Shown here: positions 3,953 through 48,370 of the stretch, in pieces
How positions within the stretch are numbered: position 1 is the stretch's first letter
How the letters are laid out: each line of letters begins with the position of its first letter
Assembly (NCBI GenBank): GCA_040901765.1
Contig: JBBDYG010000071.1
Coordinates: forward strand, 44,645-108,644
DNA length: 64,000 nt
DNA from: Pirellulales bacterium
GTDB lineage: Bacteria; Planctomycetota; Planctomycetia; Pirellulales; Lacipirellulaceae
Direction of reading: 5' to 3'
Made by a program: the position numbers and the translations under genes
Notes under the pieces: generated by a model
The model's input: only the letters and a program-made list of their open reading frames with translations
Told to the model about the DNA's origin: nothing
Databases searched by the model: none

Positions 3953-3988
3953 CAATCCTAAATCCCAAATCTGAAATCCCAAATCCCA
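3953..3988 (+). repeat. 7-bp-period tandem array AATCCCA-like x5, ending exactly at the radical SAM start codon
   Basis: aatccta aatccca aatctga aatccca aatccca then ATG at 3989. No SD sequence is present. Same architecture as the arrays at 29985-30090 and 48280-48370. Confidence 0.6.
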
Positions 3989-4903
3989 ATGCCCGCCCAC
4001 CAGCTCCACACCCTGCACGAGCGTTTGTTCGAGGCGAACCGCTTCGCCTATCCCGTGCTCAGCCGCCGGTCGGGCGGGATTTCCGTGGGCGTTAATCTGA
4101 ACCCGGACAAGGTTTGCAACTTCGATTGCATCTACTGCCAAGTGGACCGCCGCTCGCAGAGCGAGACGCGGTTTGTTGAGACCGAACAGCTTTTGGAAGA
4201 ACTGGACGCCGTACTGGACGCGGTCACGAGCGGCGCGATTTACGAAACCGAAAAGTTCGGCTCGACCCCACCCCACCTGCGGCGACTGAACGACATCGCC
4301 TTCTCCGGCGACGGCGAACCGACAACATTCAAGAACTTTGACCAGATCATCCAGGCCTGCGCGGACTTGAAGCGCCAGTTCGAATCGCGCATTCAGCAAT
4401 CCGCAATCCCGGGTACCCTCTGGGTGCCGCAATCCGCAATCAAACTCGTTCTCATCACCAACGCCAGCATGTTCCACCGGCTCCACGTCGAGCGCGGACT
4501 GGCGATTCTCGACCAGAACAACGGAGAGATTTGGGCCAAGCTCGAAGCGGGCACCGACGAGTACTATCACCTCATCGAGCGCACGCCGATTCCGTTCCGG
4601 CGGATTCTCGATAACATCACCGCCGCCGCCCGCGTGCGGCCGCTGGTGATTCAGTCGCTCTTCATGCGCGTCGCCGGCGAGCCGCCTGCGGCTACGGAGT
4701 TGGAAGCGTTCTGCGACCGCTTAAACGAAATCACTGCCGCCGGCGGCCAGTTGAAACTGGTGCAGATTTATACGATCGCCCGCCGCCCGGCGGAATCGAT
4801 TGTTACGCCGCTCGAAGATGCGGAGGTGGATGCAATAGTGGACTTGGTGCGCCAGCGGACGGGGTTAAATGCGCTGGGATTCTACGGCAGCGCGGAGTAT
4901 TAA
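3989..4903 (+). CDS. radical SAM domain protein
   Basis: CNFDCIYC (CxxxCxxC) cluster near the N-terminus, with a GDGEPT motif downstream. Confidence 0.75.
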   Translation: MPAHQLHTLHERLFEANRFAYPVLSRRSGGISVGVNLNPDKVCNFDCIYCQVDRRSQSETRFVETEQLLEELDAVLDAVTSGAIYETEKFGSTPPHLRRLNDIAFSGDGEPTTFKNFDQIIQACADLKRQFESRIQQSAIPGTLWVPQSAIKLVLITNASMFHRLHVERGLAILDQNNGEIWAKLEAGTDEYYHLIERTPIPFRRILDNITAAARVRPLVIQSLFMRVAGEPPAATELEAFCDRLNEITAAGGQLKLVQIYTIARRPAESIVTPLEDAEVDAIVDLVRQRTGLNALGFYGSAEY

Positions 4904-5019
4904 GGAGCGGACGCACAATAACTTCCGCAATTTCGGAGAAAGGCGAGATTTGAACCGCGGCGCCGCAGGATTGACGTTCCGTATAGCTACACGAAGGCAA
5001 GAAAACGACGCAAGTTTTA

Positions 5020-5217
5020 GCCACGGATGGAACACCGATGGACACGGATGAAAACAAAGAATAAAGAACACTAATCAGATTCAATCGGCACTAATCCAGA
5101 AGAAAGCAGTCCGTCGGGTTCCTGATTAGCGAAGATTAGCGCCGATTAGTGTTCCTTAACTCTTCCTTGTTAATGCATCCGTGTTCAATCCGTGTTTCAT
5201 CCGTGGCTAGCATCTTC
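5020..5217. mobile_element. MITE-like palindromic element (CGCTAAT/CACGGATG family), copy 1
   Basis: About 200 bp imperfect palindrome. cacggatg-type repeats x3 at each outer end (10-11 bp phasing). ctaatc / gattagcg x3 at the inner ends (10 bp phasing). Lower GC than surroundings. Intergenic between the radical SAM gene and dapL. No ORF of its own. Confidence 0.5.
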
Positions 5218-5338
5218 TCCCCCGTATATCTGTGGCTCTGCGGCTTTTTTCATCGAGGGGAGTTGTGTTTGGGTCGGTATTAAGAGTACGTCGCACGCCC
5301 CGTTGTTGTCGCCCCTTCTCCGCGTTAATCTACGAGGC

Positions 5339-6571: not shown

Positions 6572-6588
6572 CGGCGCAGTTAATCGCC

Positions 6589-6801
6589 TCATTGTTTCCA
6601 AAGCGTTCCCCACATTTGGCGCGTATTGGTGTTGCCCTCTGCGTTTGACCCACATTGAAGGGCCGCTTGTTTTGCTTCAACCTCCTTGAAAACGTGGTAG
6701 GAACCTTTGGTCGTCTTGAAGACGATGTACGACTCACCTTCTTTGCCGTCGAACATTCGAATGTCGAGTCCTAGCCCCTTACGTTTTCCTTTCGTCGCCA
6801 T
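6589..6801 (-). CDS. small hypothetical protein (70 aa) in low-GC islet
   Basis: MATKGKRKGLGLDIRMFDGKEGESYIVFK... with a GGAGA RBS 9 nt upstream of the internal ATG. Local GC is about 48% versus ~62% for the genome. Confidence 0.45.
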   Translation of the reverse strand: MATKGKRKGLGLDIRMFDGKEGESYIVFKTTKGSYHVFKEVEAKQAALQCGSNAEGNTNTRQMWGTLWKQ

Positions 6802-6858
6802 CGCAGAATTCTCCAAATGTGCTAGACTCCAAGGCGTAGCTAGCATTAGGATACCAGT

Positions 6859-7523: not shown

Positions 7524-7561
7524 AGCGCGAACCAGCTAGCCGCTGCGCATGTCTCTACCCC

Positions 7562-9364: not shown

Positions 9365-10519
9365 CTACAGCAATTCCGGCCACATGGCGTCGCTCACGAG
9401 CAGCCCGTCGCGGGTCAGGCAAACCCGATGGCCGTCGTCCTGGAGCAAGCCCATCTGCACATAGCGCCTCAGCTCGCGGCCTGCGAGTTGGTCGATCTCG
9501 AAACCCGTAGCGCTCTGAAACGCGGCTCGATGGACGCCTTCTAGCCGCCGCAGGCCGAAAATCAGCCGCTCGCGAGCACGCTGTTCCGGATTGAGCCGCT
9601 CGCGCTCGGCAACCGGCGACTCGCCGGCCAGAACATGCTTAAGATATGTCGTCGTGCTGCGGTGATTCGTCTCCCGCATGCCATCGACGTACCGCGCCGC
9701 GCCGGGGCCGGCGGCATAGTAGCCGCCGCCGCTCCAATAATTCTCATTGTGGCGGCTGCGCTTGCCGGGCCGAGCAAAGTTGGAGACTTCGTAGTGCTCG
9801 AAGCCAGCACTCGAAAGCTCGTCGATTGTCCACTCGTACATCTCCCGCTGCAACTCTTCGTCGCTTTCCACCAGGTCGCGTTTCTCGCGGCGATTCCAAA
9901 ACGTGGTGCCACGCTCAAACGTAAGGCCATAAGCGGAAATATGTTCAGGAGCAAGCTCGATCGCTTCGCCCAAGTCCCGCTGCCAGTCGGCGAGCGTTTC
10001 ACCTGGGGTCGCGAAGATCATGTCGAGCGACACGTCGAGACCCGCGCCACGGGCTAACCGCACCGATTCGGCAATTGCCTCCGGCGCGTGGTCGCGTTCG
10101 AGCAGCTTCAGCTTTTCGACTCGAAAGGATTGCCCGCCAATGCTCAGGCGAGTGACGCCAAATTGAACGAGCGCCTCGACCAAGCCTGCGGAAAGATCGG
10201 CGGGATTCGCTTCAACCGTCCACTCGTTTCCCGCGGCCAGTGGGTGCCAATTGCGAACGGTCCGGACTAACCGGGAAAAGTCATCGATTGCGAGCCGCGT
10301 CGGCGTGCCGCCGCCGAAGTAGAGCGTATCGACCTCGCGCGGCGTTTCGAGCCACGACAGTTCTCGCTCGATCGCATCGAGATACGCGGGCACCAGATCA
10401 TCGCGTCCCGCGACGACAGTGAAGTTGCAATACCCGCAGTGGTGCCGGCAAAACGGGACGTGAATATACACCGCTCGGGGCGGGGCATCGACCGCGGCGA
10501 TGGTGGCCGCCGCGGTCAT
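9365..10519 (-). CDS. hemW: radical SAM heme chaperone HemW (HemN-like coproporphyrinogen III oxidase family)
   Basis: VYIHVPFCRHHCGYCNF and LYFGGGTPT motifs. 4-nt overlap with the upstream cytochrome c gene. Confidence 0.8.
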   Translation of the reverse strand: MTAAATIAAVDAPPRAVYIHVPFCRHHCGYCNFTVVAGRDDLVPAYLDAIERELSWLETPREVDTLYFGGGTPTRLAIDDFSRLVRTVRNWHPLAAGNEWTVEANPADLSAGLVEALVQFGVTRLSIGGQSFRVEKLKLLERDHAPEAIAESVRLARGAGLDVSLDMIFATPGETLADWQRDLGEAIELAPEHISAYGLTFERGTTFWNRREKRDLVESDEELQREMYEWTIDELSSAGFEHYEVSNFARPGKRSRHNENYWSGGGYYAAGPGAARYVDGMRETNHRSTTTYLKHVLAGESPVAERERLNPEQRARERLIFGLRRLEGVHRAAFQSATGFEIDQLAGRELRRYVQMGLLQDDGHRVCLTRDGLLVSDAMWPELL

Positions 10520-11685: not shown

Positions 11686-11894
11686 CGAATTTCGCAACAG
11701 GTGCCGGTTGGGTTCATTATGAACCACCTTGCGTTTCTTGGCCATGAGTAGCATTTTGAACAGAAGGTCGCCAAGTTCGCGAAGGAGTTGGAAAAAGTCT
11801 GGGCTGAAACAGACTTTCTGACCTTCCTCATTCTTTGCGGACTTTGCGGCCTTCTGTTCAAGCGTTCGGCAGTTTTGTTCCGGCGGCAATTCTC

Positions 11895-14315
11895 ATGGCA
11901 ATCGACCCGATTTGCGGCATGCAGGTGGACGAAGCGACGGGCCTGTCGGCCGAGCGCGATGGGGAGAAGTTTTATTTTTGCAGCCCGTTCTGCCGGGAAA
12001 AGTTCTTGCGGGACGAGGTGCCCGAGGAACCTTCTCCTCGCCACATGAAGGCCGAGCCGGCGGTGGTATCTATCGCGATTCCCAACGCCGACGCGGCAAA
12101 GTACATCTGCCCCATGTGCCCCGGCGTGGAAAGCGACCGCCCCGGCCCGTGCCCTAAGTGCGGCATGGCGCTAGAGCCGGCGACCGTGGCGCCGCCGACA
12201 ACGCGGACCATTTACACCTGCCCGATGCATCCAGAAATCGAGCAGGACCACCCCGGTGCGTGCCCGAAGTGCGGCATGGCGCTGGAACCGAAGTCTGTCG
12301 TTGCGGCTGAAGAAGACGATCCCGAACTGCGCAGCATGACGCTACGGTTTTGGGTGGGTCTCGTCTTGGGCGTGCCGGTCTTGCTGCTGGCAATGCTGCC
12401 GATGGTGGGCATCGACTTGGGCATCTCGATGGCAACCTCACGATGGTTGCAACTGACGTTGGCAACTCCGGTGGTGTTGTGGGCCGGCTGGCCCTTCTTC
12501 GAGCGCGGCGGGCGGTCGGTCATTACCTGGAATCTCAACATGTTCACGCTCATCGCGCTCGGCGTGGGGGCGGCGTACTTGTACAGCGTCGTTGCGATGC
12601 TCGTCCCCGATTGGATCCCCGACGCCTTCAAAGACCATGGCCACGTCGCGGTCTATTTTGAAGCGGCGGTAATGATCGTCGTGCTGGTGCTGCTCGGGCA
12701 AGTGCTAGAGCTGCGTGCGCGCCGGCTCACGAGCAGCGCCATTCGTGAACTGATGTCGCTCGCGCCGCCGACGGCGCGCCTCGTTCAAGATGGCGTGGAG
12801 CGCGACGTGCCGCTGGCCGAGGTGCGCACTGGCGACCTGCTTCGCGTGCTGCCGGGGGCAAAGGTTCCGGTCGATGGCACCGTCACCTCCGGCCGCAGCA
12901 CGGTCGACGAATCGATGATTACCGGCGAGCCATTGGCCGTCGCCAAGCAAGAAGGCGACACGCTGATCGGCGGCACGGTGAACCAGACCGGCTCGTTTGT
13001 GATGCGGGCCGAGCGCGTCGGCCAAGAGACCGTCCTCTCGCAGATCGTGCAACTCGTGTCGGAAGCCCAGCGGAGCCGCGCACCGATCCAGCGGCTGGCC
13101 GACCGTATCGCGGGATGGTTCGTGCCACTGGTGGTGCTCGTGGCCGTCATCACGTTCATCGCCTGGGCGCTCTTCTCGCCGCGAGAACCGCGCCTGGCGT
13201 ATGCGCTGGTTAGCGCCGTATCGGTGCTGATCATTGCCTGCCCCTGCGCTTTGGGCCTCGCTACTCCCATGTCAATCATGGTCGGCGTCGGCCGCGGCGC
13301 ACGGGAAGGCATCCTGATCAAAAACGCCGAAGTGCTCGAAACCTTGGAGCAAGTCGATACGCTCGTGGTGGACAAAACCGGCACGCTCACCGAAGGCCGG
13401 CCGAAGCTAACCGAATTGCACACCTCAGAAGGCGTTTCCGAACAGGACTTGTTGCGCCTCGCGGCATCCGTCGAACAGCAAAGCGAGCATCCTTTATCGC
13501 GGGCGATTGTCGAAGCGGCACAGGAGAGAGGGATCGCCCTCGCCCACATCCAAGACTTCAATTCGGTGACGGGCGGCGGGGTGCTCGGCATTGTCGAGGG
13601 GCGTCGCGTGGTGATCGGTAATCCCAACCTGCTGCGTGAGCAAAGGGTGACGGACGACGATCCGTTGCTCTCCGACGCGGTCCAGTTGCAAGAGCAGGGA
13701 CGAACGGTCGTGTTTGTGGCGGTCGATGGCCGCGCGGTGGGATTGCTCGCGATTGCCGATCCGATCAAACCGACTACGGCCGACGCCGTGCGCGAACTGC
13801 ATGCCCTGGGTCTGCGGATCGTAATGCTTACCGGCGACAACGAGCGAACCGCGAAGGCCGTTGCAAAGCAACTCGGAATCGACGAGGTGGAAGCTGGCGT
13901 CAGCCCGCAGCAGAAGCACGAGCGCGTGGTGGCTCTCAAAGCTGCCGGACGCAAAGTGGCGATGGCGGGGGATGGCATTAACGACGCCCCCGCGCTCGCT
14001 GCGGCCGATGTGGGCATCGCCATGGGCACCGGCACCGACGTGGCAATCGAAAGTGCCGGCGTGACGCTCGTGAAGGGCGACCTGCGCGGCATCGTGAAGG
14101 CGATCCGCCTCAGCCGGCGCACGATGCGGAACATCCGCCAAAACTTGTTCTTCGCGTTCATCTACAACGCGCTGGGCGTGCCTGTGGCCGCGGGAGTTCT
14201 TGTTCCCTTCGGGATCACCCTGCTCTTGAACCCAATGCTCGCCGCCGCCGCCATGAGCTTTAGCTCGCTATCGGTGGTGGCGAATGCCTTGCGGCTGCGC
14301 CACTCGCAGTTGTAA
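11895..14315 (+). CDS. copA: copper-translocating P1B-type ATPase with N-terminal TRASH/YHS domain and two HMBD repeats
   Basis: PICGMQVDE...FYFCSPFC (TRASH). 2x CPM(C/H)P...[10 protein letters not shown] (HMBD). TM CPC motif [25 protein letters not shown]. Confidence 0.9.
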
Positions 14316-18130: not shown

Positions 18131-18251
18131 AATGTGAGATGTGAGAAGGCAGAAGTAAAAAAGGACTCTCGTTAGCTGCGACGCCCGCCACGGCGGGCAG
18201 GCTTCGTCCTCGGAGCGGAGCGCGTAGGGCACCGGCTGTTGGATAAAATGC

Positions 18252-18514
18252 ATGCAGTACCTCCGCCTTTTGTGGGACGATGCAGACGACCTTCGAGGCA
18301 ATCTGCAGCACGTCCTGGATCATGGGCTGAGTATCGAGGACGTAGGCGACGCAATGCACAACCCGCCGCCCGTGGGACCAGTAAATCAAGTGGCCTGCCG
18401 TGCTTGTGGGGATATACTAGAGATGGCACGTACCTCTTTGTAGTCTACGAGGAAGTCGAGAAGACGCGGCTCGTGTCGTTACAGCCTATGAAGTCCCTGA
18501 ACCGAAATAGCTGA
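18252..18514 (+). pseudogene. BrnT-like (DUF497) toxin gene with apparent frameshift
   Basis: Frame 0 gives the N-terminal LWDDADDLRGNLQHVLDHGLSIEDVGDAMHNP (BrnT pattern F-WD-...KHG-S-EEA). The +2 frame from about 18400 gives the C-terminal LWGYTRDGTYLFVVYEEVEKTRLVSLQPMKS (BrnT pattern RW..G....LVVVYT.R...IRIISARKA). The switch occurs around 18366-18400. Confidence 0.45.
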
Positions 18515-18524
18515 CGCCAGACAA

Positions 18525-18860
18525 ATGGAAACCAGACAAATGGAAACCAGAATCGAACACGTGTTTACTCATCGAGGGCGGACGTCCGAAGAAGCGGCCC
18601 GCGACGATGCCATTCGTCGAGCCGTGAAGGAGGAGTTTCCTCCCGCGCGCTCTGCGGACCTGCACGGCCCAGGCACGTTCAGCGACACGCTGCGAGATTC
18701 GCTCAGGAGCAGCGAACGTCCCTTGGATCAGATCGCGGCCTCTGCGGGCGTTTCACCCACGCTTCTGGCGCGCTTTCTGGGTGGCGAGTGTGACATCCAC
18801 ATCACCACTGCGGACAGATTGGCGAAGGCTTTGGATCTAGTCGTCGCGGCAGTTGAATAA
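18525..18860 (+). CDS. HTH (XRE-like) antitoxin candidate paired with BrnT-like toxin
   Basis: The helix-turn-helix segment LDQIAASAGVSPTLLARFLGGE lies immediately downstream of the toxin remnant. Confidence 0.5.
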   Translation: METRQMETRIEHVFTHRGRTSEEAARDDAIRRAVKEEFPPARSADLHGPGTFSDTLRDSLRSSERPLDQIAASAGVSPTLLARFLGGECDIHITTADRLAKALDLVVAAVE

Positions 18861-18897
18861 GGTGGCGGGTTGCGGACTGTCATAGAAAAGTGGCGCA

Positions 18898-19371
18898 ATG
18901 ACCCAAAACTATCACGTCCGGCTCGCTAAGGAACAGTTTACCTTCAGCGCCGCGCATTTCATCACGTTCGCCGGCAACATCTGCGAACGACTCCATGGGC
19001 ACAACTATCACGTCGCGGTCGAGGTCCACGGATTACTCGATGAAAACCAGTACGTGATCGATTTCATCGCCCTTCGCGATGCGGTGCTGGCCATTACGCG
19101 AGCATTGGATCACCACGTGCTGCTGCCCACAACGCACCCGACGATCAAGATCGAAGCCGACGATCGCGAGGTGACGGTCACTTTTGAAGAACGGCGATGG
19201 GTCTTCCCGCTCGACGACTGCGTGCTGCTGCCGGTGGCCAACACCACCGCGGAACTGGTAGCGCGATACATCGGCGAACGTCTCATCGCGGGAATGCAGC
19301 CGAAGCCCGAGAAGCTGATTGTCTCCGTCGATGAATGCGATGGTCAACAAGGCGTTTGCGCGATGTCGTAG
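18898..19371 (+). CDS. queD: 6-carboxy-5,6,7,8-tetrahydropterin synthase (PTPS/QueD family)
   Basis: CERLHGHNY (CxxxHGH) zinc-binding motif and FTFSAAHF block. Confidence 0.8.
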   Translation: MTQNYHVRLAKEQFTFSAAHFITFAGNICERLHGHNYHVAVEVHGLLDENQYVIDFIALRDAVLAITRALDHHVLLPTTHPTIKIEADDREVTVTFEERRWVFPLDDCVLLPVANTTAELVARYIGERLIAGMQPKPEKLIVSVDECDGQQGVCAMS

Positions 19372-20609: not shown

Positions 20610-23327
20610 ATGTCTCTCAGCCCGATGATGCAGCAGTATCACGACGCCAAACAGGCGGTCGGCGATGCGCTCTTGCTGTTTCGGATGGGCGACTTCTACG
20701 AACTATTTCACGAAGACGCCAAGACTGCGGCGCGAGTCTTGGGCCTGTCACTTACCAGTCGCGACAAGGGCGAGAACCCGATCCCGATGGCGGGGTTTCC
20801 CCATCACCAGCTCGATCAGTACCTGGCGAAGATCATCCGCTCTGGGCACCGCGCCGCGATCTGCGAACAGCTCGAAGACCCCAAGCAAGCCAAGGGCATC
20901 GTCAAGCGCGACGTGACTCGGATCGTAAGCTCAGGCACGCTCACGGACGATTCGCTGCTCGACCCGCGAGCGAGCAACTATCTGGCGGCCGTTTGCACGC
21001 GACCCAAGCACCCGGATCGCGTCGGCGTGGCGTGGGTCGAGCTTTCGACGGGAAGGTTCTCGGCGGCGCAGTTCTCGCGCGGCCAGCTCGCCGATGAACT
21101 CGCGCGGATTGCTCCCAGCGAATGTCTCGTGGCCGAAGGGCTGGGCGAACTGGTGCTGGCCGATTGCCCCGAGCGGATGGCAATCACCACCCGGCCCGCG
21201 TGGTCGTTCGGTCGGCAGGCGGCGCTTGACGTGTTGGGCCGGCAATTCGGTTCGCATGCGCTCGAAGGATTCGGCTTCACGGTTCACGCGGAAGACGATC
21301 CGCTCGACTTGGCCGCTGCGGGGGCGATTCTTGAATATCTTATCGAAACGCAAAAGTCATCGCTCGAGCACATCGAACGACTCCTGCCCTATGCACCGGA
21401 AGAAACGCTGCAGATCGACAGCGCCACGTGGCGCAGCCTGGAAATCACGCAAACCTTGCGAGATGGACGCCGCGAGACGGCGCTGCTGGGCGTAATCGAC
21501 CGCACGGTGACCGGCATGGGCGCGCGGCTGCTCGCCGATTGGCTCTGCCATCCGCTGACCGACGTGGCGGCGATCGACGCCCGGCTCGACGCAGTCGGCG
21601 AACTGGTGCAGCATACTCCGACAACAACGGCGATACGACAGGAACTCACGGGCATCTACGATTTAGAGCGGCTACTCGCACGCGTCACCACGGGCCGAGC
21701 CAGTCCGCGCGATCTGTCATTCGTAGGCAGGACGCTCGCCGTACTACCGAAGATCAAGGCCAAACTCACCGGCCGCGCAAGCCCGAAGCTGGTGGACCTT
21801 GAAGGGCGGATCGACCTGTGCGGCGAAGTCCGCGGCCGGCTGGAACAGGCACTCGTCGAAAACTGCCCGCTTAACACGCGCGATGGCGGGTTCATTCGCG
21901 CCGGCTTCCATCCGCCGCTCGATGAACTTCGTGAACTGATGGTGGGCGGCAAACAGTGGATGGCCCGCTATCAAGCGGCCGAATGCGAGCGAACCGGCAT
22001 CGGCTCGATGAAGGTCGGATTCAACTCGGTGTTCGGCTATTACCTGGAAGTCACGCATACTCATCGCGATAAGGTGCCGCCCGAATACATCCGCAAGCAA
22101 ACGCTCAAGAACGCCGAGCGATACGTCACGCCGGAACTCAAAGAGTACGAGGAGAAAGTTCTGTCGGCCGAGGAACGCGCAAAGCAACTCGAGTTGAGAT
22201 TATTCACCGAGTTGCGCGATCTAGTGGCATCCGCGTCGAAGCGGATATTGAGCACCGCGGCAGCACTGGCGGAACTGGATGTGCTCACAGGCCTCGCCGA
22301 CCTCGCTACGTCGCGCAACTACATTCGGCCCACAGTCGTCGCCGAGCCGGTTCTGGAAATCGAAGAAGGCCGCCACCCCGTGCTCGACGCACTCGAAGCG
22401 GCCGGAACATTCGTCCCGAACGACTGTCGCTGCGCGGGAGGGGCTAGGGATGGGGAGCTGGGGGCTGGGGAAGAAAAAGTGCCAAATTGCCAAACGTCGC
22501 TCCCCAGCCCCCAGCCCCCAGCCCCCAGCCCCTCGCTCCTCTTAATTACCGGTCCCAACATGGCCGGCAAGAGCACTTACATCCGCCAGACGGCGCTGCT
22601 CGTGCTGCTCGCGCAGATTGGCAGCTTCGTTCCCGCGCGGCGAGCAATCATTGGCGTCGCCGATCGGCTGTTTGCCCGCGTCGGCGCGAGCGACGAACTT
22701 TCCCGTGGCCAAAGCACGTTCATGGTCGAGATGACCGAAACGGCTCGAATTCTCAACACGGCAACCCACCGCAGCGTCGTGATCCTCGACGAAATCGGCC
22801 GCGGCACGAGCACCTACGATGGCCTGTCGCTGGCGTGGAGCATCGTCGAATACTTGCACGACCGCATCGGCTGCCGCGCGCTGTTTGCGACGCACTATCA
22901 CGAACTTACCGACTTGGCGGGCGAACTACCCGGAGTGGCCAACCTCAACGTCGCCGTGGAAGAACACGCGGGGAAGGTCGTGTTCCTGCATCGCATCGTG
23001 CCGGGCGCTGCCGATAAGAGCTACGGCATCCACGTCGCGGAACTAGCCGGCGTGCCGCGGGAGGTGAACCGCCGCGCTGCGGAGATTCTCGCACAGCTTG
23101 AAGCGCAGCACCACGGACGGCAAGACCATGTCGCACGTGGTGCGACGGCTTCAGCCGCGACACCACGTGTCGCACGAAACGGTCACGCGCTGCAGCTTAC
23201 GCTGTTTGAGCAAACCAACCACCCGCTGCTGGAGGAAATCCGCACGGTGGATGTGAACCAGTTGACGCCGATGGAGGCACTGATGCGGTTGCAGGCGTGG
23301 CAAGAAAAGCTAACGGAATCGCCGTGA
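20610..23327 (+). CDS. mutS: DNA mismatch repair protein MutS (carries two in-frame hairpin-forming insertions)
   Basis: N-terminal MSLSPMMQQYHDAKQ...FRMGDFYELF and Walker A GPNMAGKST are present. At 905 aa it is about 40-50 aa longer than typical MutS. The extra length is at 22452-22531 and 23130-23173. Confidence 0.9.
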   Translation: MSLSPMMQQYHDAKQAVGDALLLFRMGDFYELFHEDAKTAARVLGLSLTSRDKGENPIPMAGFPHHQLDQYLAKIIRSGHRAAICEQLEDPKQAKGIVKRDVTRIVSSGTLTDDSLLDPRASNYLAAVCTRPKHPDRVGVAWVELSTGRFSAAQFSRGQLADELARIAPSECLVAEGLGELVLADCPERMAITTRPAWSFGRQAALDVLGRQFGSHALEGFGFTVHAEDDPLDLAAAGAILEYLIETQKSSLEHIERLLPYAPEETLQIDSATWRSLEITQTLRDGRRETALLGVIDRTVTGMGARLLADWLCHPLTDVAAIDARLDAVGELVQHTPTTTAIRQELTGIYDLERLLARVTTGRASPRDLSFVGRTLAVLPKIKAKLTGRASPKLVDLEGRIDLCGEVRGRLEQALVENCPLNTRDGGFIRAGFHPPLDELRELMVGGKQWMARYQAAECERTGIGSMKVGFNSVFGYYLEVTHTHRDKVPPEYIRKQTLKNAERYVTPELKEYEEKVLSAEERAKQLELRLFTELRDLVASASKRILSTAAALAELDVLTGLADLATSRNYIRPTVVAEPVLEIEEGRHPVLDALEAAGTFVPNDCRCAGGARDGELGAGEEKVPNCQTSLPSPQPPAPSPSLLLITGPNMAGKSTYIRQTALLVLLAQIGSFVPARRAIIGVADRLFARVGASDELSRGQSTFMVEMTETARILNTATHRSVVILDEIGRGTSTYDGLSLAWSIVEYLHDRIGCRALFATHYHELTDLAGELPGVANLNVAVEEHAGKVVFLHRIVPGAADKSYGIHVAELAGVPREVNRRAAEILAQLEAQHHGRQDHVARGATASAATPRVARNGHALQLTLFEQTNHPLLEEIRTVDVNQLTPMEALMRLQAWQEKLTESP
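22452..22531. repeat. inverted repeat (19-bp arms) with AT-richer loop inside mutS, translated in frame
   Basis: ggggagctgggggctgggg ...aagaaaaagtgccaaattgccaaacgtcgc... ccccagcccccagccccc. Encodes GARDGELGAGEEKVPNCQTSLPSPQPPAPSPS immediately before LLITGPNMAGKST. Confidence 0.6.
23130..23173. repeat. REP-like hairpin pair inside mutS 3' region (in frame)
   Basis: GTCGCAC-gtg-GTGCGAC ggcttcagcc GCGACAC-cac-GTGTCGC. Encodes HVARGATASAATPRVAR in the linker before the C-terminal tail. Confidence 0.6.
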
Positions 23328-23358
23328 CTGTCGCGATGCACCCGATGCTATAATCAAT

Positions 23359-23613
23359 ATGGGCAAGTACGACAAACTCTTTCGCAAAATCACTAGCGGT
23401 CATTCCGATGCGAACATCGCATTTGACGAGTTGCGAAAGCTGTTATTACGTTTGAATTTTTACGAGCGGACCGAGGGAAGTCATCACATATTCACACGGG
23501 ATGACATCGAAGAGTTGATCAATCTTCAGCGTGATGGCGCAAAGGCTAAACCTTACCAGGTGCGGCAAGTTCGCGACGTCATCACTCAAAACAATCTCAG
23601 TTTGGAGCCGTAA
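23359..23613 (+). CDS. hicA: HicA-family toxin (YcfA-like mRNA interferase)
   Basis: RTEGSHHIFTRDD and N-terminal KLFRKITSGHSD...LRKLL pattern. 1-nt TAATG overlap with hicB. Confidence 0.65.
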   Translation: MGKYDKLFRKITSGHSDANIAFDELRKLLLRLNFYERTEGSHHIFTRDDIEELINLQRDGAKAKPYQVRQVRDVITQNNLSLEP

Positions 23614-23825
23614 TGCATAAGTACGAAATCATCATTTATTGGAGCGAGATTGACGACGCGTTCCTTGCGGAAGTACCGGAACTTCCCGGCTGCATGGCCC
23701 ATGGTAATTCGCAGAAGACCGCGCTGGAGTCCGTTCAACAGGCGATCGATCTTTGGTTGCAGACCGCGGGAGAGCTTGGGCGATCGATTCCCGAACCGAA
23801 GGGCCGGCGTTTGATGCTCGCGTAG
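23613..23825 (+). CDS. hicB: HicB-family antitoxin (UPF0150)
   Basis: YEIIIYWSEIDDAFLAEVPELPGCMAHGNSQKTALESVQQAIDLWL matches the HicB N-terminal domain pattern. Confidence 0.65.
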   Translation: MHKYEIIIYWSEIDDAFLAEVPELPGCMAHGNSQKTALESVQQAIDLWLQTAGELGRSIPEPKGRRLMLA

Positions 23826-23830
23826 ACCGC

Positions 23831-24418: not shown

Positions 24419-24540
24419 CGAACTAGACTCCACCTTTTCAATTGACCACGGATTGCGCGGATTGCACTGATAGTAGAAAGTCGCGACTAGCAAGTTTTCC
24501 TTATCCGTGCCATCAGTGTAATCCGTGGTTCGTTTCTGAT

Positions 24541-26313: not shown

Positions 26314-26488
26314 GCGGTTCCTCAGAAATCGGACCGGGCAAATTCGCCCGAAAGCAAAGCTGCGATTGTAGTTGCCGTAGGTCAGCCTTTCTAGGCTGAC
26401 TTGGCAGGGCGGACGCTCGTGTCCGTCCAGAAGCAGGCAGTAGGCAGAGGGCAGCCGGCAGGGAGAAATTCGGATGGACAGCGGCGAA

Positions 26489-28233: not shown

Positions 28234-28260
28234 AAGCCGTCGCACCACGTGCGACGGCTT
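28234..28260. repeat. REP-like hairpin, perfect 12-bp stem (AAGCCGTCGCAC-cac-GTGCGACGGCTT)
   Basis: Perfect palindrome overlapping the stop codon of the AMP-ligase gene. No U tract follows. Confidence 0.65.
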
Positions 28261-29962: not shown

Positions 29963-29984
29963 GGTGGTATTGTGGGGAGGAAAA

Positions 29985-30090
29985 GGAAAAGCGGAAAGCC
30001 AAGCGATTTCGGAATGCGGATTTCGGATTGCGGATTGAATTGGGAGAATCCGCAATCCACAATCCGAAATCCGCAATTCTTTGACTCGGG
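29985..30090. repeat. palindromic 7-bp-period array (AATCCGC / GCGGATT units) upstream of AMP-ligase gene
   Basis: ggaatgcggatttcggattgcggattgaattgggagaatccgcaatccacaatccgaaatccgcaattc. About 5 units each side, in inverted orientation. Confidence 0.55.
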
Positions 30091-30309
30091 CCGCCGAACG
30101 TGCCATATTGCCGGGTAACCCAGGCGGTCGGCATAACCGGAATAAGTCGCGGCATTACCCGCTCGCCGGCTGGCTCGACGCCCGCCACCCTTGCGGTATC
30201 CTTCGGAGAGCGGATCGGCGGCAAGATTCGCCCGTCAGCGGCGAATTGCTCTCAACGAATTCCAAGCAACCGAGAGCGCGGGCCAAGAGGCCTAAAGGAG
30301 GACGAAGCC

Positions 30310-30951: not shown

Positions 30952-31174
30952 CTTTCGGATCGATCATCGCGGAAAGACCTAACCAATCAAAAACAGTCAA
31001 ACTCAAAGCAAGCAATCATTTGCACCACGGAGGCACGGCGGACACGGAGTAGAAATAGGGCGATCGAATAGAAATGGCGCGCTGCCCCGCTTCCTATCGT
31101 AAATATTCTCCGTGTCCTCGGTGCCTCCGTGGTGATTCACAGTTCCACGTCGCATAAACCAGGGGGATTCAGAA

Positions 31175-32827: not shown

Positions 32828-32833
32828 GTCCGT

Positions 32834-32877
32834 GTCGCACGTGGTGCGACGGCGTAAGCCGCGGCACCACGTGCCGC
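32834..32877. repeat. REP-like hairpin pair downstream of flotillin gene
   Basis: GTCGCAC-gtg-GTGCGAC ggcgtaagcc GCGGCAC-cac-GTGCCGC. Confidence 0.6.
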
Positions 32878-34093: not shown

Positions 34094-34139
34094 TGCCGCA
34101 CGTGGTGCCGCGGATTAAACCGTCGCACCACTTGCGACA
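34094..34139. repeat. REP-like hairpin pair (degenerate) downstream of DUF1559 gene
   Basis: gccgcacgtggtgccgcgg is the reverse orientation of the 32861 copy. cgtcgcaccacttgcgac is the 348 copy with G to T. Confidence 0.5.
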
Positions 34140-39409: not shown

Positions 39410-39623
39410 AAACCGCTAATGGACGCTAAAGTGAAGCGGCGTTAATTCACCACGGTGACACGGAGAACGCAGAGGAAGGCATGATGCAAATCTGGTCTCT
39501 GGCACCTCCTACTATTTGGTCAATTCATTTCATTCTCCGTGTTCCCCGTGCCGCCGTGGTGATATTTGATTGTTTTTCTGTGTGAATGGTGGATTAGCGC
39601 GAATTAGCGTCCATTAGCGGTTT
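39410..39623. mobile_element. MITE-like palindromic element (CGCTAAT/CACGG family), copy 2, perfect 20-bp termini
   Basis: aaaccgctaatggacgctaa ... ttagcgtccattagcggttt. Inner caccacggtgacacggag / ctccgtgttccccgtgccgccgtggtg. TTAGCG hexamers at 11-bp phasing. Starts right after the dioxygenase stop. Confidence 0.55.
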
Positions 39624-39710: not shown

Positions 39711-40553
39711 ATGCGAAACTTGTTAACGAAACCACTGGCAGTGATGCTGGTGCTGATGTTGGCGGTGGCCGCCGGCGCGCAAGAGCGCGAGCGAGGAGAG
39801 CGCGGTGGCCGGGGCCGTGGTGGCGGCTTCGGCGGCCGTGGCATGTTCGAAGTGACACGACTCAGGCTCGTCGGCGTCGAGCCGGTGCAGGAAGAGTTAG
39901 GACTCGTGGAAGAGCAACTCACCAAGATCAACGATCTGCGAGACGAACTCCGCGGAGATCGTGGTGAACGAGGCGAGCGCGGTGAGCGGCCCAACTTCCA
40001 AGACATGACCGAAGAAGAACGCCGTGAATTCATGGCCGAGCGCCAGCGCGAAGCGTCCGAGCGCAGCGCGCAAGAGAAGGAGAAACTGGGCGAGGTTCTC
40101 ATGCCCCACCAGAGCAAGCGGCTGGAGGAAATTTTCTTGCAGGTTCGTGGCGCCGGCGCACTGCTTGACCCCGAGGTAGCCAAGGAAGTTGGCTTGTCTG
40201 AAGAGGACCAGGACGAGCTGCGCGAAACGATTCAAGAAGCCCGACAAGAAATGATGGCCGAGATGCGCGAGCTGTCCGAGTCGGGCGACCGCGATCAAAT
40301 CCGCGAGAAGATGACCGAGATGCAGAAGCAGGTCGAAGAACAAGCACTCGCCGCGCTTTCCGAGGAGCAGAAGCAAAAGTTCACGGAACTGAAGGGCGAG
40401 AAGTTCGACATGCCCCCCGACGCGCTGCGGGGCGCTTTTGGTGGCGGCCGGGGTGGTGAGGGCCGCCGGGGTGGTGAGGGCCGCCGCGGTGGTGAGGGCC
40501 GCCGCGGTGGCCGCGAAGGCCGGCCCGAACGCCCGGACGGCGATTCGGTTTAA
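39711..40553 (+). CDS. secreted LTXXQ-motif (Spy/CpxP-like) protein with Gly/Arg/Glu-rich repeats
   Basis: Signal peptide. EEQLTKINDL, LSEEDQDEL and LSEEQKQKF motifs. C-terminal (GEGRRG)x3 encoded by an 18-bp tandem DNA repeat at 40447-40500. Confidence 0.5.
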   Translation: MRNLLTKPLAVMLVLMLAVAAGAQERERGERGGRGRGGGFGGRGMFEVTRLRLVGVEPVQEELGLVEEQLTKINDLRDELRGDRGERGERGERPNFQDMTEEERREFMAERQREASERSAQEKEKLGEVLMPHQSKRLEEIFLQVRGAGALLDPEVAKEVGLSEEDQDELRETIQEARQEMMAEMRELSESGDRDQIREKMTEMQKQVEEQALAALSEEQKQKFTELKGEKFDMPPDALRGAFGGGRGGEGRRGGEGRRGGEGRRGGREGRPERPDGDSV

Positions 40554-40614: not shown

Positions 40615-40664
40615 TCGCGCGCCCACAATGGGAACTCAGTGAACCACTCATGAGAAAGAAGGTT

Positions 40665-40780
40665 AACCGCTAATTGACGCTAATGAGCGCTAATAAGAAA
40701 GCTGAGCCGTTCGTCATTGGCTTTCAGATAGAATCATTCCTTATTTTTTTATTAGCGTCGATCAGCGTTCATTTGCGGTT
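40665..40780. mobile_element. MITE-like palindromic element, copy 3 (short form)
   Basis: aaccgctaattgacgctaatgagcgctaataagaaa ... tttttttattagcgtcgatcagcgttcatttgcggtt. CGCTAAT at 11-bp phasing. AT-rich centre. Confidence 0.5.
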
Positions 40781-40840
40781 TCTCTTCTTTCACGATTCCT
40801 GTCGTTCGGACGATCAATATGACTCATTAGGGAGGCAATT

Positions 40841-41671: not shown

Positions 41672-41776
41672 CCTCGGATGACAGCCGGATTTATACACGG
41701 ATGTAGGGGAGTTATCCGAAGCCATTCAACTCGCTGTTTGTTTATTAGCGCCGGTTAGCGTTGATTAGCGGCTTCC
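41672..41776. mobile_element. MITE-like element, copy 4 (CGGATG repeats plus TTAGCG x3)
   Basis: cggatgacagccggatttatacacggatg ... ttagcgccggttagcgttgattagcgg. The right end supplies the TAA stop of the GH18 gene. Confidence 0.45.
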
Positions 41777-43408: not shown

Positions 43409-43450
43409 CAAATACACGATTACTAATTTCAAGCCACAAACAGTAACGAC

Positions 43451-44140: not shown

Positions 44141-44190
44141 AAGAACCTCCCCAGATGCAAAAGGACCGAGAAAACAACCATAATCGATCT

Positions 44191-45602: not shown

Positions 45603-46037
45603 TTAGGTTGATTCCGAATCGACGCGTCCAATCTCCTTCCAGTCTTCAAACCCGGCATCGTCGCCCACGTCCACGAAAGCGCCGCAGTGTGGGCACGTCT
45701 CTACAGTTCCCAGGCGCGACGCCGGAAATGTAGAAGCCTTTTTGCATTCCTCGCAAACCACTTCCACAGGCGATCGGTCGCCATCAGCGTCGAGTTTCTC
45801 CGTTTTCTGGCGTTCAAACTCTTCAAGCAATTGTTCGGCTCGTTCAATGTCCGCCCGTTCGATCCACACTTGTGGCTTATGTATCTCCGGCAGAAGTCCA
45901 AACATCCACGCCCCCACTTGCGACACATCCTCGACGGCATGCGCTTCTATCCCGCCGGCTTGCAACATCTCACATAGGAGCGTCGCTTCGAGATTGTTCG
46001 CGGCATTATAAACAGCAACAGGATCGCGTATGGCCAC
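45603..46037 (-). CDS. DUF2007-domain protein with C-terminal zinc-ribbon
   Basis: N-terminal VAVYNAANNLEATLLCEMLQAGGIEAHAV (DUF2007 pattern). CEECKK...CPHCG four-Cys ribbon. Confidence 0.5.
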   Translation of the reverse strand: MAIRDPVAVYNAANNLEATLLCEMLQAGGIEAHAVEDVSQVGAWMFGLLPEIHKPQVWIERADIERAEQLLEEFERQKTEKLDADGDRSPVEVVCEECKKASTFPASRLGTVETCPHCGAFVDVGDDAGFEDWKEIGRVDSEST

Positions 46038-46119
46038 TTTATTATCTCCGGAAGTCGATATTGGCGAACCGCCGACCGCTAGCGGGATTCAAACCATCTG
46101 CAAGACATGGGGGCAATGT

Positions 46120-47475
46120 TTATTCATGCCGCAGGGCTTCGATCGGGTCGAGCATTGCCGCGCGGATGGCGGGGTAGACGCCGAACACGACGCCAATGGC
46201 CACCGAGATTACGAACGCCAGCGGGATCGACCAGGTGACGAGTTGCGGCTCGACTTCCTGAATGAGCTGCGGGAGCTGCGCCATTTGCTCGGGGTAGAAC
46301 TTCTTCAGCCCTTCGCGAAGCCAAATCGAGAGGGGGCGACACAGAAGGCCGCCCGCCACGCCCAGCGCGCCGCCGGCGAGCGACAGCACCACGCTTTCCA
46401 CCAAGAACTGGCTCGTGATGTCGCGCCGCTTTGCGCCGATGGCGCGGCGGATGCCGATCTCGCGGGTCCGCTCCGTGACGGTCGCGAGCATGATGTTCAT
46501 AATGCCGATGCCGCCCACGACGAGCGAAATCGCCGCGATCAGACCCAGGAACAGAATGAACATCAGCCGCGTCGTGCGGGCCTGTTGCAACAGTTCCAGC
46601 GGCACGGTGATCGCGAAATCGTTGAGCGTGTGATAGCGGCTGATCGTCTCCCGCACGAGGTCGGCGACCGCCAGCACGTTCGCTTCCTCGTCGGTCGCAT
46701 CGTCTTCCTTCACGCGGAGGGTGATCTGGCTCACCTCGACGATGTCCCGGCTGAAGCTTCCCGGCTTCTGGGTGACCACTTGATCGCCGATCCGCCACCA
46801 GAGGGTCGTGATCGGAATGTAGATGTCGAGCGAAAAATCCTCGGCCGCCTGCGAACCGCCGATCCCCGCCGACGGCGAGCGGAACCGCATCACGCCGATC
46901 ACTTCGTAGAACATATCTTCGACGAGCACCTTCTGCCCGAGTGGTGTGCCGTATGGAAATAGCTTCTCGGCGACTTCGGACGCGAGTACGCAGTAATTGC
47001 GATTCTCGTCCATGTCGGCATCGCTGAGAAACCGGCTTTTGCGCTCCTCGGTGTCATATTTCGTGTCGAGCGTAAGCTGAGTAACGGAAGCATAATCGGG
47101 CGTCGTGGCGACGATGCGGCCTTGAATGCGGCGCGTCTTGAAGCGGAACTCCCCTTCCAGCACGCGAATCGGCAACGCCACGTCGACTTGCGGAATCGTC
47201 GATACCAGCCGCAGATAATCCGCCCGGGTAAGCCCGTAGCCGCCGTCTTGAAAGTCATCGCTGGTGGGCTTGATCGTCCGCACCAGAATATTGCGGGCAC
47301 CCAGGCTTTCGATCTGCTTCTGCGAAGCGCGGCTGATCCCTTCGCCGATCGCCAGCAGCCAAATCACGCTCGACACGCCAATGAAGATGCCGAGCACCGT
47401 CAGCGCAGACCGCATCGGATGGAGCAGCAGGCTCTTAACGCTCAGTTGCAGGGTGCGTAGCCATTTAGCGAGCAT
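46120..47475 (-). CDS. ABC transporter permease (FtsX/MacB-type)
   Basis: LLHPMRSALTVLGIFIGVSSVIWLLAIG N-terminal TM, a large periplasmic domain, and a C-terminal FtsX-like 3-TM bundle. Confidence 0.8.
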   Translation of the reverse strand: MLAKWLRTLQLSVKSLLLHPMRSALTVLGIFIGVSSVIWLLAIGEGISRASQKQIESLGARNILVRTIKPTSDDFQDGGYGLTRADYLRLVSTIPQVDVALPIRVLEGEFRFKTRRIQGRIVATTPDYASVTQLTLDTKYDTEERKSRFLSDADMDENRNYCVLASEVAEKLFPYGTPLGQKVLVEDMFYEVIGVMRFRSPSAGIGGSQAAEDFSLDIYIPITTLWWRIGDQVVTQKPGSFSRDIVEVSQITLRVKEDDATDEEANVLAVADLVRETISRYHTLNDFAITVPLELLQQARTTRLMFILFLGLIAAISLVVGGIGIMNIMLATVTERTREIGIRRAIGAKRRDITSQFLVESVVLSLAGGALGVAGGLLCRPLSIWLREGLKKFYPEQMAQLPQLIQEVEPQLVTWSIPLAFVISVAIGVVFGVYPAIRAAMLDPIEALRHE

Positions 47476-47548
47476 GGGTTGGAAGCTGAGCCCGCGGCGC
47501 GAGCAAGGGAGCGCGTGTAAACCCTTGCTTGCGCTGCGGGCTACGATG

Positions 47549-48244
47549 CTATCTCCTTTCATCCATCACCACTTGCCCATCTTTGAGCATGATTGTGCGC
47601 TTCGTTCGGTTGGCGACTTCAGGTTCGTGGGTGACCAAAATAATCGTGCGTCCTTCCTCGTTAAGATTCTGAAGCAGATCGAGGATTTCTACGGTCGTTG
47701 CGGAGTCGAGGTTGCCTGTCGGTTCGTCGGCGAGGATGAACCGTGGGTCGTTCACGAGGCTCCGCGCGATGGCGACGCGCTGTTGCTGGCCGCCGGAGAG
47801 TTGCGTCGGGCGATGGTCGAGGCGTTGCCCGAGCCCGACCATTTCCGCAAGCTCGACGCACCGCCGGCGAGCCAAGCGGTTGAGCCGACCACTGTAGTAG
47901 AGCGGCTGCTCGATGTTCTCGACCACCGTCAAATACGACAGCAAGTTGAACGACTGAAATACGAACCCGATCCGCGTGGCGCGGGTCTCGGCCAGTTCGT
48001 CGTCGTTCATCCGGGCCACGTCCCGCCCGCCGAGAATGAACTCGCCCGAAGTCGGCCGATCGAGGCAACCCAGCAGATTGAGCAGCGTGCTCTTGCCCGA
48101 ACCGGAGGGGCCCATAATTGAAACATAATCGCCCTCGGGCAGATCGAATGTCACCCCTTGCAGCGCCCGCACCGTCTCGCCACCGAGATGGTAGTGCTTA
48201 TGCAGCTCGCGGATACTCGCGGCAAGAGTTTCGGTGGCGAACAT
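47549..48244 (-). CDS. ABC transporter ATP-binding protein (MacB/LolD-like)
   Basis: [35 protein letters not shown]. Start at the internal ATG (MFATETL). Confidence 0.85.
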
Positions 48245-48279
48245 AGGCGCGTGGGACGGACACTTCTGTCCGGCAACTG

Positions 48280-48370
48280 AATTGAATTGCAAATTGCAAA
48301 ATGGTTATTGCAAATTGAAAATTGACAAACTGGATCTTCAATTTGCAATGTTCGTTTTGCAATTTGCAAT
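48280..48370. repeat. AT-rich palindromic 7-bp-period array (ATTGCAA / TTGCAAT units) between MFP and ATPase genes
   Basis: attgcaaattgcaaaatggttattgcaaattgaaaattgacaa ... caatttgcaatgttcgttttgcaatttgcaat. Under 35% GC in a 62% GC genome. Confidence 0.6.

Follow-up and report, generated by a model that had tools for sequence, protein, structure and literature searches.

Why should unrelated genes of one bacterial genome be preceded by short tandem repeats of the same period, and do these repeats act as switches for the genes beside them? The question is raised by a 64-kb stretch of a Pirellulales genome (64,000 nucleotides of contig JBBDYG010000071.1, assembly GCA_040901765.1; hereafter the window), in which an earlier note had pointed to 7-nucleotide (nt) tandem arrays upstream of a radical SAM enzyme gene (locus 1), an AMP-ligase gene (locus 2) and the ATPase gene of a MacB-type efflux system (locus 3). 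It was suggested there that changes in unit number could phase-vary translation, or that the arrays could be binding sites for a regulator. The answer towards which we lean, with slightly better than even confidence, is that these three loci are unexceptional cases of the heptanucleotide simple-sequence repeats (SSRs) that populate the whole lineage, resized by slippage and kept where they are tolerated, and not gene-specific switches.

Within the source genome, the analysis covers the window, with a GC content of ~60%. Arrays were located with Tandem Repeats Finder (TRF), inverted arms and their percent complementarity being computed separately, and periodicity was scanned as self-matches at lag p for periods of 4-15, scored against dinucleotide-preserving shuffles. 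Gene starts were taken from our own map of open reading frames (ORFs) combined with Pfam and orthologue calls. The relatives compared include L163, L164 and L165 for the locus 1 region, L166 for the locus 3 region and L161 for the region of mutS and the aspartyl-tRNA synthetase (AspRS) gene; L161, L164 and L166 are contigs of one ENA sample, whose flanking genes are ~90-94% identical to those of the window. The cross-phylum control consists of the MutS loci among the matches listed (hereafter the listed loci), which come from many phyla and include few close relatives. Among these matches, the closest named relatives by MutS are Aeoliella, Lacipirellula, Bythopirellula and Posidoniimonas. The MutS of the window is identical to an NCBI protein of a Pirellulales metagenome-assembled genome, and the host is a Lacipirellulaceae-like planctomycete.

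The three arrays and the population to which they belong

All three arrays are present where the earlier note had placed them, 5' of genes, and they share the 7-nt period with three different units; their tracts match at 68-83% over 4-6 units. Two forms of element can be distinguished. Locus 1 is a single array, C-rich on the sense strand, which runs into the radical SAM ATG (3989) with no Shine-Dalgarno (SD) sequence, as had been described. Its RNA has a minimum free energy (MFE) of -2.1 kcal/mol (z +1.1), i.e., it is less structured than its shuffles, and an array of this type gives a G-poor, unstructured, SD-less leader. Loci 2 and 3 represent the other form, in which an array is followed by a loop and by its reverse complement, and such double arrays fold into stems that are imperfect, measure 25-45 bp and have the G-rich arm 5'. 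At locus 2, TRF reports GATTGCG x4.7 at 30005-30037 and AATCCGC x4.4 at 30047-30077 (80-83% matches), within arms (29997-30036 and 30047-30086) that are 78% complementary and fold with an MFE of -53.5 kcal/mol (z -5.9). At locus 3, the AT-rich arrays are AATTGCA x6.3 at 48285-48329 (71%) and its complement x4.6 at 48339-48370 (68%), in arms (48286-48322 and 48334-48370) with 86% complementarity and an MFE of -51.1 kcal/mol (z -7.9). The tandem-plus-inverted layout, which had been attributed to all three loci, is therefore that of loci 2 and 3, locus 1 being unfolded and without an inverted partner.

A position at the start codon, also claimed for the three, is true of locus 1 only. The AMP-binding domain begins at residue 16 of the protein that starts at the ATG at 29965 (minus strand), the likely start of the AMP ligase; this puts the end of the locus 2 hairpin 31 nt upstream of the ATG, and the earlier observation that this array had been wrongly drawn into an ORF call is borne out. 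The hairpin almost fills the divergent spacer between this ATG and the ORF at 30100 (plus). At locus 3, both flanking genes are on the minus strand, and the hairpin lies in the spacer that separates them, 52 nt past the stop codon at 48423 that ends the HlyD-type adaptor gene and 41 nt ahead of the ABC ATPase's ATG at 48244. For annotation, this means that arrays can falsely lengthen ORF calls, as at locus 2, and make low-complexity inserts in real proteins. As for the statement that a 7-bp period does not match helical phasing, three units make 21 bp, which are two turns of B-DNA, and the period is thus not out of phase with the helix.

These loci are a sample of ~17 elements of this type found in the window in every gene context (Table 1). 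The period-7 arrays number 12, against 0.53 in shuffles (7 against 0.03 at a stricter threshold), and no other period between 4 and 15 stands out except 14, which is a multiple of 7. The non-coding part, ~14% of the window according to our own ORF map, holds seven of ten period-7 loci. The neighbouring genes are of the housekeeping kind; besides those of loci 1-3, they encode an ABC transporter, an aminotransferase, a copper ATPase, MutS, a peroxiredoxin, AspRS, a Band-7 protein, a dioxygenase, a dienelactone hydrolase and a GH18 protein. Some unit families recur within the window: AATCCGC is used at both 4383 and 30047, and a CACGG family with the common termini CCACGG...CCGTGG is found at 5018, 24445, 31023 and 39447. 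A search of the whole window against Rfam at the gathering score gave no match.

Table 1. Heptanucleotide arrays and hairpins of the window, with position, strand and setting
Element	Position	Strand	Setting or support
Hairpin with GGCTGTC / GACAGCC arms	430..517	.	Divergent spacer, ~105 nt 5' of ABC transporter start
Locus 1, single array AATCCCA x5.1	3954..3989	+	5' leader; TRF, 82% matches
AATCCGC arrays, peptide QQSAIPGTLWVPQSAI	4383..4441	+	In frame in radical SAM ORF; TRF
Nested hairpin, outer CACGGATG-type arms (period 10-11), inner ACTAATC / GATTAGCG arms	5018..5209	.	Tandem or intercistronic spacer, between radical SAM stop and aminotransferase start
Hairpin, 38-nt arms of CTTTGCGGA-type units	11756..11861	.	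Fills 150-nt divergent spacer between minus-strand ORF (ATG 11746) and copper P-type ATPase (ATG 11896)
Short ATGTGAG array	18132..18155	+	Single array, begins 2 nt past AP-endonuclease stop
Double-array hairpin of mutS: degenerate GGGGCTG units, loop, perfect CCCCAGC x4.4	22438..22541	+	In frame in mutS
Hairpin ACCACGGATTG...AATCCGTGGT	24445..24529	.	Tandem or intercistronic spacer, between AspRS stop and peroxiredoxin start, both minus
AGCAGGC array (plus-strand unit; sense strand C-rich)	26432..26461	-	Single array, 5' leader, ~125 nt 5' of likely AspRS GTG start
Locus 2, double-array hairpin: GCGGATT-type x4.7, 10-nt loop, AATCCGC x4.4	29997..30086	.	Divergent spacer
Hairpin, CACGGAG-type arms, 93% complementary	31023..31134	.	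Tandem or intercistronic spacer, 40 nt 5' of Band-7 ATG (31175)
Nested hairpin, outer CCGCTAAT-type arms (20 nt, 100% complementary), inner CACGG-type hairpin at 39447-39562	39410..39623	.	Convergent spacer, 1 nt past dioxygenase stop
Hairpin, CGCTAAT / ATTAGCG arms (47 nt, period ~10)	40654..40791	.	Divergent spacer 5' of dienelactone hydrolase gene
ATTAGCG-type array (period 10)	41740..41770	.	Convergent spacer 3' of dienelactone hydrolase gene
Locus 3, AT-rich double-array hairpin ATTGCAA / TTGCAAT	48286..48370	.	Tandem or intercistronic spacer
GCCGACA / GCCGATA array	52872..52902	-	In frame in lipoprotein signal-peptide n-region
GCAGCCG x3.6 array	56561..56585	+	Single array, 5' leader, ~125 nt 5' of real gene start (~56710)

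The preference for a period of 7 extends beyond the window. Counted over the window and the listed loci, arrays of this period occur 16.1 times per 100 kb in the window and its close relatives; the figure for all planctomycete loci is 7.1 and that for other phyla 1.75, with 6, 9 and 12 as the dominant periods of those other phyla; in the window and its close relatives, the periods of 4-12 other than 7 amount to at most 1.7 per 100 kb. The listed planctomycete loci contain 46 arrays belonging to 37 heptamer families, and long hairpins are 2.4-3.5 times denser in them. Since the same arrays are present in independent assemblies, and the isolate Lacipirellula parvula carries GCGAGTC arrays at the MutS site, they are not an assembly artefact.

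Regarding strand polarity, the strongly skewed planctomycete hairpins of the listed loci and the window have the G-rich arm 5' in 17 of 17 cases, on both strands, and thus the C-rich arm faces the downstream gene in nearly all cases. Other phyla lean likewise (G-first to C-first 8:3 and 15:5 among the listed loci), so this polarity is not a special planctomycete feature. Selection acting on the sense RNA should leave G.U mismatches on the sense strand; A.C mismatches are seen there instead, and the antisense fold has the greater stability in 9 of the 12 hairpins whose orientation is known, a difference that is not significant and gives no support for such selection. No terminator-like site was found on the relevant strand at loci 1-3, and the hairpins, with stems of 25-45 bp not followed by a T-run, are therefore not canonical terminators. 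A consensus promoter scan at the same loci revealed no flanking hexamers and is uninformative.

Copies inside genes and turnover among relatives

The clearest case of an element inside a gene is that of mutS (20610-23327), where the hairpin lies between the sequence encoding FVPND and the Walker A motif and folds with an MFE of -75.9 (z -6.5). Among the listed loci, most bacteria, many Pirellulales among them, have 99 nt separating GRHP and the Walker A GPNM; the window has 84 nt more, and these 84 nt are the hairpin. In other Pirellulales of the listed loci, the spacing grows by 24 to 123 nt; every insert is divisible by 3 in length and free of stop codons, and the heptamers vary (GCGAGTC, GAGAGAC, AGTGTCC). 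The 120 closest MutS homologues (65-100% identity) all have 39-88 residues at the insert site, as against 33. The inserted peptides correspond to an arm and its reverse complement (e.g., GLGTGDWGLG...SPAPSPQSPAP or NDECRMTNDE...SSFDIRHSSF) and are wholly different even among relatives that are 85-94% identical. The hairpin is strong in the window and in L001, L161 and L035 (z -3.5 to -7.7), and it has decayed to nothing in L168, L008, L009, L012 and L014. Solved MutS structures contain no counterpart of the insert, and the alignment with Escherichia coli MutS resumes at residue 597. An essential and easily aligned gene with a heptamer insert just before Walker A throughout a family amounts to a natural experiment, and cultured strains exist (Lacipirellula parvula), with which the origin of heptamers, the reason for a 7-nt unit and the choice between selfish and useful elements become testable.

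Other genes contain such copies too. The insert site of the radical SAM enzyme is hypervariable in 120 homologues, with peptide families of the MutS type and one homologue without insert, and in the lipoprotein n-region, ahead of the LAGC lipobox, the peptide GRLSAVGYR comes from the array at 52872, which is conserved in L166. All the intragenic copies seen are in frame. Taking into account that they survive in frame and free of stops, and that the GAATGAC family is altered in coding copies so that TGA is avoided, the intragenic copies are translated. For the same reasons, removal of the intragenic hairpins at the RNA level by bypass or splicing was ruled out.

Comparison with close relatives indicates how these elements change. 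The count of units across relatives, which the earlier note had recommended, gives five at locus 1 in three of three lineages: L163 and L164 keep the unit and the five copies with point differences only. In L165, which is 80% identical at the protein level, the array is absent. The hairpin at 430-517 is 93-95% conserved in L164 and L163, the right arm of the latter carrying an exact 7-nt deletion, and at this site L165 has a hairpin of another unit, GCAGGAT, which appears again just ahead of its aminotransferase ATG. In L166, with genomes ~93% identical, the locus 3 spacer is occupied by an unrelated GC-rich hairpin. At the site corresponding to 24445, L161 retains remnants of the outer arms with an extra hairpin nested within. 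L163 has, between the corresponding two genes, no counterpart of a ~375-nt segment of the window (4905-5280) which includes the 5018-5209 hairpin; an imperfect direct repeat, GTATTAAG..CGCAC, lies on either side of the segment, as though it had been inserted, and BLAST found no related full-length copies. The intragenic radical SAM site, where the window has AATCCGC, has four perfect AATCCCA units in L163 and L164, as in their own upstream array. The resulting pattern is one in which sites remain occupied, often by an entirely different sequence, the same unit families serve more than once within a genome, and simple gains or losses of units are rare.

Several additional observations concern these regions and the wider distribution of the elements. 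A heptamer hairpin or insert at the MutS Walker A site was recorded in L001, L002, L011, L035, L081, L161, L162 and L167. In L002, a Bythopirellula metagenome-assembled genome (MAG), a CGCCTTC array (9884-9927) stands just 5' of the mutS start, and its complement, GAAGGCG x6 (12443-12483), lies 2.5 kb off in the part of mutS encoding the C-terminus. Heptamer double-array hairpins are also found near mutS in MAGs of Acidobacteriaceae and Dehalococcoidales (L051 2557-2654, L075 20950-21050 and L052 12567-12650), and the design is therefore not limited to Planctomycetota. Hairpins of three genera have the terminus CTCACGCAGAGG...CCTCTGCGTGAG in common (L161 9430-9505, L002 13664-13743 and L028 8233-8297), which hints that some families are conserved, or have spread, above the species level. 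Two further segments, of ~700 nt (18184-18898) and ~500 nt (23317-23829), are missing from the syntenic L161, which is ~90% identical; the former includes an ORF (18525-18860) and a 15-nt unit repeated perfectly in tandem, CCAGACAAATGGAAA x2.3 (18517-18551), and the latter an ORF at 23359-23613.

A REP-like (repetitive extragenic palindrome) sequence, GTCGCACCACGTGCGACA, has six copies in the window (351-368, 23129-23146, 28239-28256, 32833-32850, 34094-34111 and 34122-34139) against 0.12 expected, and is also present in L163 (959-976) and L164 (1068-1085); most copies are a few bases past stop codons, and one, encoding the peptide HVARGAT, is in frame within the C-terminal portion of MutS. 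Two coding repeats have periods divisible by 3, as repeats of this kind should: an 18-nt unit, GGCCGCCGCGGTGGTGAG x3.8, with 96% matches (40443-40510), and a CCG / 9-nt repeat, GCCGCCGAA x4.8 (51849-51950), in the gene for a 997-residue lipoprotein. An ORF of 23 codons (MKRSGQRRMFSFTAVCSLPASYH, 56587-56658), which begins 2 nt past the GCAGCCG array and lies ~50 nt ahead of the real gene start, could encode a leader peptide or be due to chance. The gene for a protein with an Mrr-type restriction endonuclease domain (53973-55019), probably acquired horizontally, is located where the GC content of the window falls, here alone, to 47% from ~60%.

Tolerated repeats, mobile DNA or functional RNA

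The reading of the arrays as a tolerated SSR population brings together the excess of heptamers, the stability of the hairpins beyond that of shuffles, their nesting and the exchange, at fixed sites, of one complete element for another between genomes of ~90-93% identity. To these are added the re-use of units in one genome, the survival in ORFs only of in-frame, stop-free versions and the decay of the hairpin in some lineages. It can be proposed that arrays change their length through replication slippage, as the 7-nt indel in L163 indicates, and that the inverted partner is formed by intrastrand template switching, or is copied from another element. Elements would then persist where the harm is slight, i.e., at gene boundaries and in permissive protein loops. 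Once transcribed, a double array would be a REP-like stem-loop that could block 3' exonucleases or insulate cistrons, a generic effect, and a single C-rich array would leave the start region unpaired. Locus 1 is conserved, which suggests that it is under some constraint.

Several facts weigh against this reading. Locus 1 has kept its unit and copy number while adjacent elements were being replaced, which hints at selection or at an active process, and a hairpin or insert has been retained for a long time at single sites (120 of 120 MutS homologues; the locus 3 spacer). Moreover, heptamer families recur across loci and genera (GCGAGTC in MutS of L001 and L167; CTCACGCAGAGG-type hairpins in L161, L002 and L028), which is unexpected under independent local slippage and fits copying or mobility better. 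The size of the unit, 7 nt, is left unexplained, all the effects at the RNA level are inferred, and the view is limited to 64 kb of the source genome.

These difficulties lead to the possibility that the hairpins are non-autonomous mobile DNA, similar to REPINs (REP doublets forming hairpins) or to MITEs (miniature transposable elements with inverted repeats), which an enzyme would copy in trans into hairpin loops and gene boundaries, the heptamer period mirroring its recognition. We regard it as unlikely, though worth keeping in view. Unit families recur at several sites per genome and are common to several genera, orthologous sites differ between genomes, and elements are present or absent among close strains, the ~375-nt segment with its flanking imperfect direct repeat included. 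Three hairpins are nested (the two of the window and the one in L161), four sites share the CACGG family termini, and the genome also contains a classical REP-like palindrome in six copies. However, copies bear no full-length likeness to one another and differ in the number and order of units; BLAST of each hairpin against the window and the fetched loci returned orthologous copies only, with no dispersed full-length ones. Neither clear terminal inverted repeats nor exact target-site duplications were seen, no transposase or REP-associated tyrosine transposase (RAYT) was found among the window proteins scanned, and the mutS element, with one perfect and one degenerate arm, resembles the product of local slippage. 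In a bolder version, to which we give little credence, heptamer-armed hairpins would be a new class of self-copying micro-elements whose families spread through a genome and displace one another at fixed landing sites, including that of the mutS hairpin, fast-evolving and prone to frameshifts, which is kept family-wide; such sites may be gene boundaries, older hairpin loops and permissive protein loops. If this were true, the 7-nt period would be accounted for by a dedicated enzyme specific for hairpins, or by a dedicated repair pathway, as would the G-first polarity and the cross-genus families, and the mutS copy may, as a sub-case, be a mutator switch reversible by slippage of one unit.

It could also be argued that each element is an individually selected RNA structure acting in cis (a 3'-end, processing or stability signal, or an attenuator, with locus 1 as an enhancer of translation initiation), selection bearing on structure or its absence only and leaving the sequence free to drift. 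The retention of hairpin positions in spite of sequence replacement is consistent with this, as are fold stabilities far above those of shuffles, the maintenance of the locus 1 unit and number in three lineages with no structure around the ATG, and the mostly downstream orientation of the C-rich arm (5' arm G-rich 17:0 among the listed loci and the window), which would hide C-rich or SD-like RNA near starts. This explanation is, nevertheless, decidedly doubtful: the antisense fold prevails in the strand test, the lean towards G-first hairpins is found in other phyla too, the MutS hairpin is gone in several lineages, replacement is wholesale and without compensatory changes, none of loci 1-3 is followed by a T-run, and hairpins also occur in ORFs, where little benefit is to be expected from a 40-bp stem.

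The two mechanisms put forward in the earlier note fare worse. Its suggestion of slippage in unit number stands insofar as 7-nt steps do occur, one unit having been lost once (the L163 deletion in the 430-517 hairpin) and perfect four-unit runs being present, and a 7-nt unit would shift the frame in the mutS, radical SAM and lipoprotein ORFs. That such changes toggle translation or transcription of adjacent genes is, on the other hand, very improbable. The five units of locus 1 are constant in three lineages and L166 has the 52872 array unchanged; the tracts of loci 1-3, at 68-83% match, are a poor substrate for slippage, and they lie outside ORFs and, by the consensus scan, not between promoter hexamers. 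Elements are found in all contexts, intragenic copies are all in frame, and the neighbours are housekeeping, not surface or contingency genes. Of the two outcomes that the earlier note had named as refuting its idea, invariant unit number is seen at locus 1, but the other fails: the arrays do not lie outside transcripts, as the MutS and radical SAM copies are in intact ORFs and locus 3 is intercistronic. That the arrays are tandem sites for one RNA- or DNA-binding regulator is scarcely to be credited either. It would agree with the placing of several sites directly 5' of start codons, in line with the proposal made for TAACTGA repeats (PMC4679880), with a recurrent AATCC / GGATT core (AATCCCA, AATCCGC, CGGATTG) and with the two helical turns spanned by three units; but the three loci have three different units, as do, on a larger scale, the 37 families in 46 arrays of the listed planctomycete loci, close relatives have unrelated sequence at orthologous sites, the units of loci 2 and 3 are tied up in a stable stem, and no functional theme joins the neighbouring genes.

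Relation to known repeat systems

Bacterial heptamer repeats have been known since 1990, and heptamers have been recognised as the commonest class of long SSRs since 2007, with no accepted origin or function. Short tandemly repeated repetitive (STRR) sequences of cyanobacteria were reportedly described by Mazel et al. in 1990, and STRR units such as CCCCAGT, TTGGTCA and CAACAGT belong to heterocyst-forming cyanobacteria. Units and host differ from those found here, the nearest unit being CCCCAGC, with one mismatch to STRR1 (CCCCAGT); the resemblance is one of kind and not of membership. Indeed, near-matches of this type (CCCCAGC/CCCCAGT, AATCCCA/AATCCCC, AAACTGA/TAACTGA) were not used as evidence, because about one is expected by chance on a rough count. 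Identity of AAATCCC, the rotation of the locus 1 unit, with the plant telomere repeat was ruled out, AAATCCC not being a rotation of CCCTAAA.

The closest likeness is to the heptamer long SSRs of Mrazek et al. (2007). In later reports (PMC4679880, PMC4692102), heptamers are given as the most abundant class of long SSRs, mostly intergenic and with many units per genome, and polymerase slippage is proposed as their origin. The window likewise has 7-nt tandems beyond chance, a preference for period 7 that is shared by its close relatives, and a non-coding bias. Unlike those known repeats, the present ones come from Planctomycetota at 60% GC, most arrays are paired with their reverse complement, some hairpins are nested, and in-frame sites in essential genes are occupied.

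In Xanthomonas (GGGAATC) and Nostoc (GGGGA(C/T)T), Rehm et al. (2015) found the G-rich strand to be non-coding upstream of ORFs, with some inverted pairs, length and sequence differences from strain to strain, and neighbouring genes of all functional classes (PMC4692102). The same is seen here: locus 1 has a C-rich sense strand, the hairpins have the G-rich arm 5' (17:0), and AAATCCC at locus 1 is the complement of GGGATTT, one base away from the Nostoc GGGGATT, L163 having AATCCCC and GATTCCC units. In contrast to that report, most units here are without G-tracts and there are in-frame intragenic copies. With respect to quadruplexes, for which at least four tracts of three or more G on one strand are needed, the intact CCC/GGG tracts at locus 1 number three in the window and five in L163, and loci 2 and 3 have none; the argument from quadruplexes cannot be transferred to the arrays described here. 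The TAACTGA repeats of marine Beggiatoaceae (MacGregor 2015, PMC4679880) resemble locus 1 only, in that heptamers are placed a few nt 5' of starts without a canonical ribosome-binding site. The likeness is of position and not of sequence family, the unit being different, and in both cases the neighbouring genes are functionally unrelated. TAACTGA is, however, one dominant unit with almost no inverted copies, whereas here units are many and hairpins common (PMC4679880).

The contingency SSRs of Haemophilus, Neisseria and Moraxella share with the present arrays the short tandem units near or in genes and slippage as the mutational process. They consist of long perfect tracts that vary among siblings and are associated with surface or virulence genes, none of which applies here, as shown by unit number (5, 5 and 5 at locus 1), by tract perfection (82%, 80-83% and 68-71% at loci 1, 2 and 3) and by placement. 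The REP located between malE and malF stabilises mRNA, and a generic effect on mRNA 3' ends is likely to be common to REPs and to the present hairpins. REPs, bacterial interspersed mosaic elements (BIMEs) and REPINs (Bertels and Rainey 2011, PMC3116915) also resemble these hairpins as dispersed extragenic structures at gene boundaries, with species-specific families and inverted doublets of ~100 nt, a form that is present in the window. REPs have, however, a conserved sequence of 20-40 nt and a RAYT transposase (PMC3116915), whereas here the arms consist of many heptamer sequences with no full-length similarity within the 64 kb.

As regards occupancy of coding genes, the in-frame, translated copies found here have a parallel. 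Rickettsia palindromic elements are said, after Ogata et al. in 2000, to be inserted in frame in coding genes and translated as extra surface segments. These elements, reviewed in PMC2229807, have a recognisable consensus and a conserved length of 100-150 nt, whereas in the hairpins described here the architecture alone is common and the sequence has been repeatedly replaced at one site. In the literature searched, no account of such elements in Planctomycetes was found. The kind itself is known; what appears to be new is the hairpin made of two arrays, the nesting of hairpins, and the way in which in-frame elements of fast turnover occupy mutS throughout a family.

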